Positions 49,764-56,246 of a stretch of 64,000 nt of DNA are shown one piece after another. The DNA lies in the NCBI RefSeq assembly GCF_003334255.1, contig NZ_QOWU01000004.1. One strand, written 5' to 3'. The translations under genes were made by a program, and so were the position numbers. The notes below the pieces were generated by a model. It saw only the letters and a program-made list of their open reading frames with translations. It was not told the DNA's origin and made no database searches. This stretch comes from Escherichia coli. Lineage in GTDB: Bacteria > Pseudomonadota > Gammaproteobacteria > Enterobacterales > Enterobacteriaceae. Position 1 is the stretch's first letter. Each line of letters starts with the position of its first letter.

Positions 49764-50123
49764 TTATTGTTCGCCTACAAAGCTGACAAAGCGCGTTCCT
49801 TTATAGCTCAGCGTACCTTTATCGCCCACTGTCAGGGCGTGGTACTGCTGGGCGTCGAGGCGAAACGTCTGCTCCATTCCTCCGCTTTGCGGTTTGAAGC
49901 TTGCCCCATAGCGTATACTGGTGCCTGCCGGAGTCACTTCCTGCTGGCGCGAACGGCGATCGTTAATCGGTTTTTCCCGCTTGTTGCTCACCACCACCAG
50001 CTTTTGCTGGAGCGGAGCCATATCATTATCAGCTTTTTCCCGTCGCTGTTGCATAAAACGAAACGATGCGGCGACGACAATTAAGCCAATGATAACAATA
50101 AAGAAAAGAGGTGGTTTGCTCAT
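49764..50123 (-). CDS. yhhM: small membrane-anchored protein of unknown function
   Basis: 119-aa ORF with an N-terminal TM helix. Confidence 0.8.
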   Translation of the reverse strand: MSKPPLFFIVIIGLIVVAASFRFMQQRREKADNDMAPLQQKLVVVSNKREKPINDRRSRQQEVTPAGTSIRYGASFKPQSGGMEQTFRLDAQQYHALTVGDKGTLSYKGTRFVSFVGEQ

Positions 50124-50963: not shown

Positions 50964-53162
50964 ATGTCGACTCCTGACAATCACGGCAAGAAAGCCCCTC
51001 AATTTGCTGCGTTCAAACCGCTAACCACGGTACAGAACGCCAACGACTGTTGCTGCGACGGCGCATGTTCCAGCACGCCAACTCTCTCTGAAAACGTCTC
51101 CGGCACCCGCTATAGCTGGAAAGTCAGCGGCATGGACTGCGCCGCCTGTGCGCGCAAGGTAGAAAATGCCGTGCGCCAGCTTGCAGGCGTGAATCAGGTG
51201 CAGGTGTTGTTCGCCACCGAAAAACTGGTGGTCGATGCCGACAATGACATTCGTGCACAAGTTGAATCTGCGCTGCAAAAAGCAGGCTATTCCCTGCGCG
51301 ATGAACAGGCCGCCGAAGAACCGCAAGCATCACGCCTGAAAGAGAATCTGCCGCTGATTACGCTAATCGTGATGATGGCAATCAGCTGGGGTCTGGAGCA
51401 GTTCAATCATCCGTTCGGGCAACTGGCGTTTATCGCGACCACGCTGGTTGGGCTGTACCCGATTGCTCGTCAGGCATTACGGTTGATCAAATCCGGCAGC
51501 TACTTCGCCATTGAAACCTTAATGAGCGTAGCCGCTATTGGTGCACTGTTTATTGGCGCAACGGCTGAAGCTGCGATGGTGTTGCTGCTGTTTTTGATTG
51601 GTGAACGACTGGAAGGCTGGGCCGCCAGCCGCGCGCGTCAGGGCGTTAGCGCGTTAATGGCGCTGAAACCAGAAACCGCCACGCGCCTGCGTAAGGGTGA
51701 GCGGGAAGAGGTGGCGATTAACAGCCTGCGCCCTGGCGATGTGATTGAAGTCGCCGCAGGTGGGCGTTTGCCTGCCGACGGTAAACTGCTCTCACCGTTT
51801 GCCAGTTTTGATGAAAGCGCCCTGACCGGCGAATCCATTCCGGTGGAGCGCGCAACGGGCGATAAAGTCCCTGCTGGTGCCACCAGCGTAGACCGTCTGG
51901 TGACGTTGGAAGTGCTGTCAGAACCGGGAGCCAGCGCCATTGACCGGATTCTGAAACTGATCGAAGAAGCCGAAGAGCGTCGCGCTCCCATTGAGCGGTT
52001 TATCGACCGTTTCAGCCGTATCTATACGCCCGCGATTATGGCCGTCGCTCTGCTGGTGACGCTGGTGCCACCGCTGCTGTTTGCCGCCAGCTGGCAGGAG
52101 TGGATTTATAAAGGGCTGACGCTGCTGCTGATTGGCTGCCCGTGTGCGTTAGTTATCTCAACGCCTGCGGCGATTACCTCCGGGCTGGCGGCGGCAGCGC
52201 GTCGTGGGGCGTTGATTAAAGGCGGAGCGGCGCTGGAACAGCTGGGTCGTGTTACTCAGGTGGCGTTTGATAAAACCGGTACGCTGACCGTCGGTAAACC
52301 GCGCGTTACCGCGATTCATCCGGCAACGGGTATTAGTGAATCTGAACTGCTGACACTGGCGGCGGCGGTCGAGCAAGGCGCGACGCATCCACTGGCGCAA
52401 GCCATCGTACGCGAAGCACAGGTTGCTGAACTCGCCATTCCCACCGCCGAATCACAGCGGGCGCTGGTCGGGTCTGGCATTGAAGCGCAGGTTAACGGTG
52501 AGCGCGTATTGATTTGCGCTGCCGGGAAACATCCCGCTGATGCATTTACTGGTTTAATTAACGAACTGGAAAGCGCCGGGCAAACGGTAGTGCTGGTAGT
52601 ACGTAACGATGACGTGCTTGGTGTCATTGCGTTACAGGATACCCTGCGCGCCGATGCTGCAACTGCCATCAGTGAACTGAACGCGCTGGGCGTCAAAGGG
52701 GTGATCCTCACCGGCGATAATCCACGCGCAGCGGCGGCAATTGCCGGGGAGCTGGGGCTGGAGTTTAAAGCGGGCCTGTTGCCGGAAGATAAAGTCAAAG
52801 CGGTGACCGAGCTGAATCAACATGCGCCGCTGGCGATGGTCGGTGACGGTATTAACGACGCGCCAGCGATGAAAGCTGCCGCCATCGGGATTGCAATGGG
52901 TAGCGGCACAGACGTGGCGCTGGAAACCGCCGACGCAGCATTAACCCATAACCACCTGCGCGGCCTGGTGCAAATGATTGAACTGGCACGCGCCACTCAC
53001 GCCAATATCCGCCAGAACATCACTATTGCGCTGGGGCTGAAAGGGATCTTCCTCGTCACCACGCTGTTAGGGATGACCGGGTTGTGGCTGGCAGTGCTGG
53101 CAGATACGGGGGCGACGGTGCTGGTGACAGCGAATGCGTTAAGATTGTTGCGCAGGAGATAA
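50964..53162 (+). CDS. zntA: Zn(II)/Cd(II)/Pb(II)-translocating P-type ATPase
   Basis: 732-aa ORF with CCCDGAC and GMDCAAC metal-binding motifs, CPC motif and DKTGTLT phosphorylation site. Confidence 0.97.
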   Translation: MSTPDNHGKKAPQFAAFKPLTTVQNANDCCCDGACSSTPTLSENVSGTRYSWKVSGMDCAACARKVENAVRQLAGVNQVQVLFATEKLVVDADNDIRAQVESALQKAGYSLRDEQAAEEPQASRLKENLPLITLIVMMAISWGLEQFNHPFGQLAFIATTLVGLYPIARQALRLIKSGSYFAIETLMSVAAIGALFIGATAEAAMVLLLFLIGERLEGWAASRARQGVSALMALKPETATRLRKGEREEVAINSLRPGDVIEVAAGGRLPADGKLLSPFASFDESALTGESIPVERATGDKVPAGATSVDRLVTLEVLSEPGASAIDRILKLIEEAEERRAPIERFIDRFSRIYTPAIMAVALLVTLVPPLLFAASWQEWIYKGLTLLLIGCPCALVISTPAAITSGLAAAARRGALIKGGAALEQLGRVTQVAFDKTGTLTVGKPRVTAIHPATGISESELLTLAAAVEQGATHPLAQAIVREAQVAELAIPTAESQRALVGSGIEAQVNGERVLICAAGKHPADAFTGLINELESAGQTVVLVVRNDDVLGVIALQDTLRADAATAISELNALGVKGVILTGDNPRAAAAIAGELGLEFKAGLLPEDKVKAVTELNQHAPLAMVGDGINDAPAMKAAAIGIAMGSGTDVALETADAALTHNHLRGLVQMIELARATHANIRQNITIALGLKGIFLVTTLLGMTGLWLAVLADTGATVLVTANALRLLRRR

Positions 53163-53262
53163 GGCAAACCGATCGCAACATTGAGCGCGATCGGTCCCCT
53201 CGCCCCTCTGGGGAGAGGGTTAGGGTGAGGGGAAAAGGCGGCATCGAAGCCAATCAGCCCCT
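53163..53262. repeat. GC-rich intergenic palindromic repeat (box C-like; family name uncertain)
   Basis: CCGATCGC-N8-GCGATCGG hairpin then CCCCTCTGGGGAGAGGGTTAGGGTGAGGGG; lies between convergent zntA and tusA. Confidence 0.4.
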
Positions 53263-54467: not shown

Positions 54468-55025
54468 ATGCGCAATCTGGTTAAATATGTCGGAATTGGC
54501 CTGCTGGTTATGGGGCTTGCGGCCTGTGATGATAAAGACACTAACGCTACGGCGCAGGGTTCGGTCGCGGAAAGTAACGCTACCGGGAATCCCGTCAACC
54601 TGCTTGATGGCAAGTTAAGTTTCTCGCTGCCAGCGGATATGACCGACCAGAGCGGTAAGCTGGGAACGCAGGCCAATAACATGCATGTCTGGTCCGACGC
54701 CACCGGGCAGAAAGCAGTCATCGTCATCATGGGCGATGATCCGAAAGAAGATCTGGCGGTGCTGGCGAAGCGTCTGGAAGATCAGCAACGTAGCCGCGAT
54801 CCGCAGCTGCAAGTGGTAACCAATAAAGCCATTGAGCTGAAAGGTCACAAAATGCAGCAGTTAGACAGTATTATCTCCGCGAAAGGCCAGACGGCGTACT
54901 CTTCCGTTATTCTGGGTAACGTGGGTAATCAACTGCTGACCATGCAAATTACGCTGCCCGCTGACGATCAGCAAAAAGCGCAGACCACCGCAGAAAACAT
55001 CATTAATACGCTGGTTATTCAGTAA
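54468..55025 (+). CDS. dcrB: periplasmic lipoprotein DcrB
   Basis: ORF track 54414..55025; start trimmed to [20 protein letters not shown] (185 aa, lipobox LAAC). Confidence 0.9.
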
Positions 55026-55028
55026 GTT

Positions 55029-56246
55029 TTAAGATGATGAGGCGGCCTCAGGGACGTGTTCCGGAGGCCGTTTTTTTAATCGCCACGTCAGTAATAACGC
55101 GATTGCGACCAGTCCCGCCGCCGCCAGATAAATCACCGGTACGCCCGCCCAGCTCATCACCAGCCCAGCCAGTGGTCCAGTCACGCCAAGCGATAAATCC
55201 ATAAATACGGTGTAAGTTGCCAGCGCCGCCCCCTGATTTTGCTGCGGAACCGCTTTTACCGCCACTACACCCAATGCCGGGAACACCAGCGAAAACCCGG
55301 CCCCCGCCAGTAAGACGCCGATTTTCGCCATCCACGGCATAGTCGCCACGCCAACCAGTAGCAGGCCGATTATCTCAACGCTAAAGCAAATCATCGCTAC
55401 GTTTAAGCCACCGATACGGTTAATGCCGTTAGGGAATAACAAACGCGTACCGACAAACGCACAGCTAAACAGCGTCAGCGCGAAAGCCGCACCGTCCCAA
55501 CCTTTAGCGTCATAAAACAGCGTGATAAAGGTGGCGATGACGCCAAATCCGGCGGAAGCCAGTGCCAGCGCCATACCGTACAGCCAGACGCGCCCAAGCA
55601 CCGCGCGAAACGGCAGCGGTTTGCCTTTACTGGCTTTTACCGTCGGACGCGGGATCGCCAACAAAATGGCCACCAGCGCCACGCCCATAATGATTAACGC
55701 TAACGCCTGCAAGCCGCCCCAGTGATAAAACACGACGCCTAACGGCGCACCCATCGCCATCGCCCCGTAAGTGACAATGCCGTTCCACGAAATCACCCGC
55801 CCGATATGCAGCGAGCCAACCACGCCAACGCCCCATAGGGTCGATCCCGTTCCGGCAAAACTTTGCCCAATCCCAAGGATGACGCGCCCCAGGCAAAGTA
55901 ATAACAGGCTGATGACAGGCAGACTGGCGGTTAATCCTGCCGTCAGATACCCCAGACCGCTCAAAAAGCAGCCGCATAAACCGAAGACGACAATCTTTTT
56001 GGGTCCCAGCGAATCGGCGTAACGTCCGGCATGAGGGCGGCTCAGCAAGGTGGCGAAATATTGCAGGCTGATAACCAATCCTGCCCAGAAGGCGCTAAAG
56101 CCCATCACATCATGGACATAGCCCGGTAATACAGCGAGCGGCAACCCGATGGTGAGGTAGCTGGCGAAGTTAAACATGACTATAGAGACAATGCGCAAAT
56201 TCAGGCGCAATCCGTTTAGCGCGGGTTCGGCTACGGGTTCGGGCAT
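55029..56246 (-). CDS. yhhS: MFS transporter
   Basis: ORF track 55029..56288; start trimmed to MPEPVAEPALNGLRLNL (405 aa). Confidence 0.9.
   Translation of the reverse strand: MPEPVAEPALNGLRLNLRIVSIVMFNFASYLTIGLPLAVLPGYVHDVMGFSAFWAGLVISLQYFATLLSRPHAGRYADSLGPKKIVVFGLCGCFLSGLGYLTAGLTASLPVISLLLLCLGRVILGIGQSFAGTGSTLWGVGVVGSLHIGRVISWNGIVTYGAMAMGAPLGVVFYHWGGLQALALIIMGVALVAILLAIPRPTVKASKGKPLPFRAVLGRVWLYGMALALASAGFGVIATFITLFYDAKGWDGAAFALTLFSCAFVGTRLLFPNGINRIGGLNVAMICFSVEIIGLLLVGVATMPWMAKIGVLLAGAGFSLVFPALGVVAVKAVPQQNQGAALATYTVFMDLSLGVTGPLAGLVMSWAGVPVIYLAAAGLVAIALLLTWRLKKRPPEHVPEAASSS
55043..55077 (+). terminator. intrinsic terminator of dcrB, lying inside the 3' end of convergent yhhS
   Basis: Hairpin CGGCCTCAGG-N8-CCGGAGGCCG followed by TTTTTTT, 18 bp after the dcrB stop. 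Confidence 0.7.

Follow-up and report, generated by a model that had tools for sequence, protein, structure and literature searches.

Several described systems come close to the arrangement at the end of Escherichia coli dcrB. In the canonical intrinsic terminators of enterobacteria, a GC-rich stem-loop is directly followed by a U-tract, in which the RNA 3' end is located. For convergent genes, bidirectional terminators lying between the two genes are described by Ju et al. 2019, as summarised in bioRxiv 10.1101/2022.10.23.513370. A further class is the convergent excludon, of which 165 were identified in E. coli with ExcludonFinder (NAR 2025, PMC12288877), the dcrB-yhhS pair being among them. 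[quoted passage not shown] Both the terminator element of dcrB and its overlap with yhhS are already contained in published data sets, and the locus is an example of a common arrangement.

The locus was analysed in a window of 64,000 nucleotides, which is the whole stretch of E. coli DNA under study. Here, dcrB is the last plus-strand gene, located after yhhQ, and is convergent with yhhS, whose stop codon lies at 55029-55031 on the minus strand, leaving 3 bp between the two coding sequences. The region of about 1.1 kb around the junction was found in all 5426 complete E. coli genomes, in many of them with 100% identity. The junction contains the following features:

54468-55025, plus strand: dcrB coding sequence, 185 amino acids, TAA at 55023-55025 (RefSeq annotation of an identical E. 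coli genome and the list of open reading frames).
55029-56246, minus strand: yhhS coding sequence, MFS transporter of 405 amino acids (RefSeq annotation; PF07690 on homologues).
55029-55079, minus strand: last 16 codons of yhhS and stop (L KKRPPEHVPEAASSS *), the antisense reading of T-run, hairpin and spacer.
55026-55042, plus strand: spacer of 17 nt from the dcrB stop to the hairpin; on the minus strand, the yhhS stop and the codons for SSS-A.
55043-55070, plus strand: terminator hairpin, 28 nt and GC-rich, CGGCCTC-A-GGGA[CGTG]TTCC-G-GAGGCCG.
55071-55077, plus strand: U-tract (T7), directly abutting the closing C-G pair of the hairpin.

The original prediction had placed a hairpin and a run of seven T just past the dcrB stop, within the last 15 codons of yhhS. 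Hairpin and T7 were confirmed at this place, and so was the overlap, with the refinement that the last T falls into the 16th codon: the 15 codons KKRPPEHVPEAASSS together with the stop occupy 55029-55076, and the Leu codon before them takes its third base from T 55077. Since the stops are separated by 3 bp only, the DNA of the terminator also constitutes the last 16 codons of yhhS. The minus-strand translation of yhhS ends in ...TWRLKKRPPEHVPEAASSS*, with the 3' end codons UUA AAA AAA CGG CCU CCG GAA CAC GUC CCU GAG GCC GCC UCA UCA UCU UAA, so that the U-tract is read on this strand as the A of the Leu UUA codon and AAA AAA (Lys-Lys).

The outer stem of the hairpin (55043-55049 with 55064-55070) consists of 7 bp, six G-C and one U-A, and the inner stem (55051-55054 with 55059-55062) of 4 bp, two G-C, one G-U and one A-U, enclosing a loop of 4 nt (55055-55058). 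Both stems are separated in E. coli by a mismatch of A55050 and G55063, which is missing from most relatives. In the released RNA, the four leading U of the U-tract are potential pairing partners of the spacer sequence GAGG (55039-55042). A dG of -17.0 kcal/mol was calculated for the hairpin alone; the plus-strand context of 57 nt folds at -24.3, far below shuffled sequences (z = -4.16), which bears out the predicted hairpin on the side of folding energy. The minus-strand complement folds less well (-16.8, z = -2.5), and CCUCAUCAUC follows the hairpin on this strand, without a U-run. A bidirectional terminator was rejected, with GATGATGAGG as the upstream bases, CCUCAUCAUCUUAA in the minus-strand RNA after the hairpin and a U-tract on one side only. 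The locus resembles the bidirectional terminators summarised from Ju et al. 2019 in that two convergent genes meet at a stem-loop. It is unlike them in that the dcrB hairpin is preceded by GAUGAUGAGG and no A-tract, and in that yhhS is apparently terminated by Rho about 450 nt further on.

A custom scan of both strands of the 64-kb window for a T run of at least 6 directly after a closed hairpin with dG of -14 or lower identified the dcrB terminator as the sole match. In first-order Markov simulations, a mean of 0.4 such sites was obtained per 128 kb; the expectation for a match no further than about 60 nt from a particular stop is therefore about 2e-4. The site was not listed by a scan of the window for terminators with a contiguous stem (loop of up to 8 nt), because of the internal mismatch. 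An Rfam search at a permissive threshold revealed no family at the dcrB terminator; the only match reported was a sub-threshold one to Hrs13 at 53162-53245. Searched against 5063 E. coli genomes, an 81-nt query covering the element matched at one place in the median genome and at 2 at most. A REP or other dispersed palindromic repeat was ruled out, the element being single-copy.

Read on the yhhS strand, A AAA AAA and the complementary hairpin might also be taken for a site of programmed -1 frameshifting in the yhhS mRNA, and UUA AAA AAA is formally a slippery heptamer of the type X XXY YYZ which is followed by a hairpin of -16.8 kcal/mol. Known -1 frameshift sites have a spacer of about 5-9 nt. 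In yhhS, however, the hairpin follows the heptamer with a spacer of 0 nt, and a stop closes the -1 frame after 9 codons (KKTASGTRP*, ending at 55048), so that one short tail would be exchanged for another. With the heptamer fully accounted for by the U-tract, the probability of such a site is close to negligible.

The 3' end of the dcrB transcript has been mapped by others. [quoted passage not shown] 2023 (TRS; PMC10687069, Suppl. Data 2-4), a 3' terminus designated 'Primary dcrB' is located at MG1655 3610564, with a peak at 3610559-3610571, a signal of 0.93-0.97 and adjusted p values of 4e-60 to 4e-197 in triplicate libraries. The 3' UTR has a length of 53 nt, and the table displays the same hairpin and seven U (PMC10687069). 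With the last base of dcrB at MG1655 3610513 set to window position 55025, the published end corresponds to 55077 +/-1, the distal end of the U-tract, as was to be expected from the original prediction. The curated Term-seq tables of Adams et al. 2021 (PMC7815308) contain no end at the hairpin and only a dcrB-internal one, at +37. A small RNA derived from the 3' UTR was considered and rejected: dcrB is no outlier in the TRS analysis of 3'UTR/CDS (PMC10687069), and an Rfam match was not obtained.

Conservation of the element was analysed by a DcrB-based scan with one genome per species, resulting in 80 loci. The stop of yhhS lies 0-14 bp from that of dcrB in Escherichia, Citrobacter, most Enterobacter, Lelliottia, Leclercia and Klebsiella, and also in Trabulsiella, Phytobacter, Pluralibacter, Franconibacter, Superficieibacter and Buttiauxella. 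In these genera, a homologous hairpin (consensus CGGCCTCC....GGRGGCCG) with T7 is located inside the yhhS tail LKKRPPxxxxxEAxSSS. In a gapless alignment of 42 distinct Enterobacteriaceae sequences of hairpin and T7, 93.8% of the cells of the 12-bp stem are paired, and compensatory changes affecting both partners occur in 7 of the 12 stem pairs (55 cells). In 500 shuffles, none of the observed measures of pairing or covariation was reached, and only 36-53% were paired when the registers were slid by 1-3 columns. T7 or T8 is present in almost all loci with the hairpin, including those without yhhS; one locus (L046) has T6.

Within E. coli, two alleles of the loop were identified, GACGTGTT in 3857 genomes and the TATTTCCA/TGCTTCCA type in 1119 genomes, with differences at 5-6 positions out of 8 consecutive ones. 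Double changes (G-U to U-A and A-U to G-C) preserve the inner stem of the TGCTTCCA variant (L004), and in the TATTTCCA variant one inner pair is lost (A/C). The length of the hairpin is reduced from 28 to 19 nt, an in-frame loss of 9, in Leclercia/Silvania, Phytobacter and Pseudescherichia. Lengths of 27, 26, 23 and 21 nt were also found in lineages without yhhS.

A number of lineages have lost yhhS and retained the hairpin with T7 or T8, namely the E. cloacae clade, Yokenella, Cedecea and RIT693, as well as Buttiauxella warmboldiae, a Pluralibacter MAG and 'Citrobacter sp. 18056'. The loss was demonstrated by alignment of the flanks for the E. cloacae clade, B. warmboldiae, Cedecea and the Pluralibacter MAG, and by gene content for Yokenella and L075; in most yhhS-less lineages, yhhT is the next gene after dcrB. 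Between E. cloacae and the yhhS-containing E. wuhouensis, homology breaks off precisely at the final T of the run and is regained after 1235 bp. B. warmboldiae retains 51 nt of the yhhS 3' sequence, which proves a deletion and not a non-insertion. The conservation across species expected for a terminator was thus observed, with a hairpin that covaries and stays even where yhhS is deleted. In outgroups with DcrB of 51-64% identity, the tusA-yhhQ-dcrB context is kept and other genes lie downstream. In every outgroup, a distinct, unrelated hairpin begins about 8-21 nt past the dcrB stop and leads into a run of U or a U-rich segment, so that a terminator directly after dcrB is an old and constant feature. 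The version of the terminator that is shared with yhhS belongs to the lineages in which yhhS is, or was, the convergent neighbour. The YhhS tail may be a coding sequence made by reading an existing terminator backwards, or the terminator may have evolved inside an existing tail.

The effect of the overlap on codon usage was assessed as pairwise identity at third positions in 50 yhhS genes of the overlapping type. In the body of the gene, 296 codons with a conserved degenerate amino acid gave a mean of 0.55, with 2% of them at 0.95 or above. The corresponding positions of the tail are:

Leu392: third-position identity 0.96, UUA/CUA in 49 of 50.
Lys393: third-position identity 1.0, AAA in 50 of 50.
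Lys394: third-position identity 1.0, AAA in 50 of 50.
Arg395: third-position identity 1.0, CGG.
Pro396: third-position identity 0.47, CCY.
Pro397: third-position identity 0.78, mostly CCG.
Glu402: third-position identity 0.95, GAG.
Ala403: third-position identity 0.95, GCC.

The free CCY site of Pro396 corresponds to stem pair 6-23, where U-A and U-G interchange neutrally. In the reading frame of yhhS, a third position of one arm lies opposite a second position of the other, and first positions face each other; every compensatory double change consequently alters the YhhS sequence. The variable inner stem and loop correspond to variable residues of YhhS (EHVP, VEAP, AALQ and others).

The conservation could also be due to a functional C-terminal peptide of YhhS, the potential to form a hairpin being incidental. 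A tail of the pattern LKKRPP....EA.SSS is encountered in genera ranging from Escherichia and Salmonella to Klebsiella and Buttiauxella, and among the YhhS homologues in the matches listed, all of at least 84% identity, the same tail is present in Salmonella, E. fergusonii and K. oxytoca. Length changes of the hairpin in overlapping loci are, in addition, mostly in frame, like the shortening from 28 to 19 nt in several genera. However, the stem covaries although every double change alters an amino acid, a function of the protein cannot explain the frozen synonymous sites, and hairpin and T-run are retained after deletion of yhhS. The tail itself is lost or altered in proteins that are otherwise intact: in Kluyvera, with a hairpin longer by 2, YhhS is truncated inside the loop (KKRPLA*); in Enterobacter sp. 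R1 (L056), a -1 change results in the frameshifted tail KKSPRLNNRRP*; and in Kosakonia and Atlantibacter, YhhS ends about 10 residues earlier, without the tail. In the latter two genera, a spacer of 60-100 bp between dcrB and yhhS contains an unrelated terminator composed of A-run, hairpin and T-run, which is of the bidirectional type, unlike the dcrB terminator of E. coli. A peptide function as the origin of the conservation is consequently judged highly improbable. The dual constraint claimed in the original prediction holds strongly in one direction, from the RNA on the synonymous sites of yhhS, and weakly in the other, from coding on the RNA, with a tail that varies, is truncated or is absent. 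Judged from the alignments, the tail is largely a by-product of the RNA element and the peptide evolutionarily dispensable. Only the in-frame length changes, which are few and non-independent events, hint that coding limits the RNA in turn.

Beyond the hairpin, Rho has been implicated on both strands. In the DirectRNA-seq data of Adams et al. 2021 (PMC7815308), obtained with and without bicyclomycin (BCM), two Rho termination regions were identified near dcrB and yhhS. The coverage was determined in windows of 800 nt, which are too coarse to resolve the hairpin itself. The two stretches concerned are:

55078-55427, plus strand: C-rich, G-poor RNA antisense to yhhS, C/G 1.65-1.8 over about 350 nt, containing a Rho region.
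54529-55028, minus strand: 3' untranslated read-through of yhhS, antisense to dcrB, without intrinsic terminator, with a Rho region at about 54578.

The plus-strand region, at MG1655 3610794 and antisense to yhhS, has a coverage of 171 upstream and 16 downstream without BCM and of 183 and 124 with BCM (PMC7815308); its Rho score is 7.2 (p 1e-15; PMC7815308 Suppl. file 2). It lies at about window position 55306, some 230 nt past the hairpin, and with BCM the downstream coverage rises to 68% of the upstream coverage. The C-rich plus-strand RNA past the T-run suits Rho loading. Termination at the hairpin may thus be incomplete, and the Rho-sensitive RNA downstream could represent substantial read-through or an unrelated antisense RNA; the Rho region is likely a back-up for either. 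Read-through of dcrB transcripts, the observation that would count against the original prediction, is to some extent hinted at by this region; the mapped 3' end is not contradicted by it. The minus-strand region, at MG1655 3610066 and antisense to dcrB, has coverages of 73/23, against 119/121 with BCM (PMC7815308), and a Rho score of 3.2 (p 9e-6; PMC7815308 Suppl. file 2). It corresponds to about 54578, some 450 nt past the end of yhhS. In the direction of yhhS, only a weak 5-bp hairpin was found, at 54992-54979, and no yhhS 3' terminus at the hairpin is present in the 3'-end tables of Adams et al. or among the TRS rows listed. These published data point to Rho as the factor that terminates yhhS within antisense dcrB and that also removes any plus-strand RNA passing or arising beyond the hairpin.

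The plus-strand region raises the question of whether Rho also terminates dcrB itself, about 200-300 nt beyond the hairpin, with 3'-to-5' exonucleases trimming the RNA back to the hairpin. The Rho region at MG1655 3610794 (+) with its score of 7.2 (PMC7815308) and the C-rich, G-poor RNA downstream would fit this, and hairpin-protected ends of Rho-dependent transcripts are described by Dar & Sorek 2018. However, the protective hairpins described there are without U-rich sequence after them, whereas dcrB has U7, and the dcrB 3' end is located at the distal end of a perfect U7 abutting the stem (PMC10687069). Furthermore, T7 or T8 is kept in almost all lineages, even where it no longer codes for Lys-Lys, and the synonymous sites over the U-tract are frozen, which a mere block to exonucleases would not need. 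Trimming is therefore regarded as quite unlikely. Formation of the mapped dcrB 3' end by termination instead of trimming is an inference, and so is the efficiency of this termination.

The short distance between the genes is not peculiar to this pair. Within the window, 4 of 9 convergent pairs have 3 bp or less between their coding sequences:

rtcR/glpR: convergent, overlap of 19 bp.
yhhA/ugpQ: convergent, overlap of 14 bp.
yhhL/yhhM: convergent, gap of 2 bp.
dcrB/yhhS: convergent, gap of 3 bp.

For yhhM, a 3' end was published at MG1655 3605156-3605158, about 94 nt inside the yhhL coding sequence (PMC7815308, PMC10687069). The yhhL/yhhM pair is like dcrB/yhhS in being convergent, with a 2-bp gap and one 3' end inside the coding sequence of the neighbour. 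The yhhM hairpin (49713-49684, minus strand) is unlike that of dcrB in having no U-tract, and resembles a protected or Rho-type end.

The dcrB 3' end at 55077 lies 49 nt beyond the outer edge of the yhhS stop (55029), and the transcripts overlap. As in the convergent excludons (PMC12288877), the dcrB terminator is located inside the transcription unit of its neighbour yhhS, with necessarily overlapping transcripts; unlike in a typical excludon, dcrB overlaps with the coding sequence of yhhS and not only with its 3' UTR, and mutual exclusion is putative. The near-zero spacing might itself have been selected, with dcrB and yhhS acting antagonistically through an RNA duplex of about 50 nt that RNase III would cleave, and through head-on encounters of polymerases at the hairpin. 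The pair is on the published list (PMC12288877), a spacing of 0-6 bp is retained in most genera with the hairpin, and in one study yhhS mRNA was lower upon overexpression of dcrB. However, this overexpression lowered all five genes tested, and yhhS is not among the changes of about two-fold or more. In addition, yhhS was lost repeatedly while the terminator was retained, the two genes are 70-100 bp apart in Kosakonia, and tight convergent spacing is common, as the 4 of 9 pairs in the window show. Selection for antagonism is thus considered unlikely; if true, it would link an envelope lipoprotein factor (dcrB) to an MFS exporter (yhhS), for which glyphosate/arabinose efflux phenotypes are reported.

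The element is most probably a canonical, unidirectional Rho-independent terminator of dcrB, which is embedded in the 3' end of yhhS. This reading of the original prediction is supported by the 3' end (PMC10687069), the covariation of the stem, the retention after loss of yhhS and the frozen synonymous sites. The element is like the canonical enterobacterial intrinsic terminators in its GC-rich stem-loop with an abutting U7, located 17 nt past the stop, in the RNA 3' end within the U-tract and in a stem that is maintained by compensatory changes. Unlike these, it lies wholly in a convergent coding sequence and has an A/G mismatch in E. coli; the mechanism would be the same. After the dcrB stop, RNA polymerase would continue for 17 nt, the GC-rich hairpin of 28 nt abutting U7 would form in the nascent RNA, and the transcript would be released at the end of the U-tract. 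The YhhS tail L-KK-RPP-xxxx-EA-x-SSS would then represent, in this order, the antisense of U-tract, 3' arm, loop, 5' arm and spacer. Selection would act mainly on the RNA, freezing synonymous sites of yhhS and forcing AAA-AAA and the rare YUA Leu codons, with a peptide tail that probably tolerates change. Without an intrinsic terminator of its own, yhhS would be ended by Rho in antisense dcrB, and Rho would clear plus-strand RNA as well.

Several consequences follow for work on this locus. Recoding or tagging of the yhhS 3' end, or a complete deletion of yhhS, will damage the dcrB terminator, and reads from the dcrB 3' UTR will be miscounted as yhhS antisense. Methods based on conservation may mis-score the YhhS tail as functionally constrained. 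The finding is of little importance beyond the dcrB/yhhS locus; it provides a worked example of how a terminator that overlaps a convergent coding sequence dictates its codons (AAA-AAA, UUA/CUA, CGG, GAG and GCC), and of how the tail of a protein can be the by-product of an RNA element.

Several convergent gene pairs besides dcrB and yhhS, which encodes an MFS transporter, are present in the window.

1959-1977, convergent: rtcR and glpR (DeoR family), coding sequences overlapping by 19 bp.
31875-31888, convergent: yhhA and ugpQ, coding sequences overlapping by 14 bp.
49670-49766, convergent, yhhM-side features on the minus strand: yhhL and yhhM, separated by a 2-bp gap.

For the last pair, the 3' end of yhhM has been published at MG1655 3605156-3605158 (approximately window position 49670), about 94 nt within the yhhL coding sequence. 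Just upstream of this end is a hairpin, GCCGAAAAGG…CCTTTTCGGC (49713-49684, minus strand), which is not followed by a U-tract. Within the dcrB open reading frame itself, a reproducible RNA 3' end has been mapped 37 nt into the gene (MG1655 3609992, approximately window position 54504, plus strand), which was present in all three growth conditions and has a Rho score of 0.5 (Adams et al. 2021, PMC7815308). Premature termination within the signal-peptide region, or processing there, could account for this end. Spanning the 3' end of zntA and the spacer between zntA and tusA, a weak, sub-threshold Rfam match to Hrs13 was obtained (53162-53245, minus strand; E = 0.17, 19.7 bits where the gathering score is 52), which is probably due to chance.

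In E. coli, the loop and inner stem of the dcrB hairpin (window 55053-55060; positions 135-150 of compared locus L085) occur as two sharply different alleles, with GACGTGTT carried by 3857 genomes and TATTTCCA/TGCTTCCA by 1119. They differ by 5-6 changes in 8 adjacent bases on an otherwise near-identical surrounding background, and with the second allele the tail of YhhS reads VEIP or VEAP instead of EHVP. In E. coli strain MS 200-1, dcrB is annotated as frameshifted.

In Kosakonia and Atlantibacter, the overlapping dcrB terminator is replaced by an unrelated one, and the YhhS C-terminus is located about 10 residues earlier.

About 20-45 nt past the dcrB stop, inside a 60-100 bp spacer: bidirectional-type terminator, AAAAA-GGGAACC…GGTTCCC-TTTTTT (Kosakonia loci L044, L054, L055, L057, L062 and L065; Atlantibacter locus L071).

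For Salmonella enterica subsp. arizonae CCUG 6322T (L043:3059-3340), yhhS is a pseudogene split into several frames, and the dcrB hairpin contains two mismatches in the outer stem (dG about -7.6) with the T7 run retained; the YhhS proteins of other Salmonella carry the normal tail.

In E. coli strain E07 (NZ_CM143880.1; L084:330-420), the dcrB hairpin's 3' arm is followed immediately by the start of an IS1 element, with the junction …CCACCGGGGGCCG|GGTGATGCTGCCAACTTACTG…, and the same element disrupts yhhS. Since IS1 takes the place of the T-run, E07 represents a natural strain with a dcrB terminator devoid of its U-tract.
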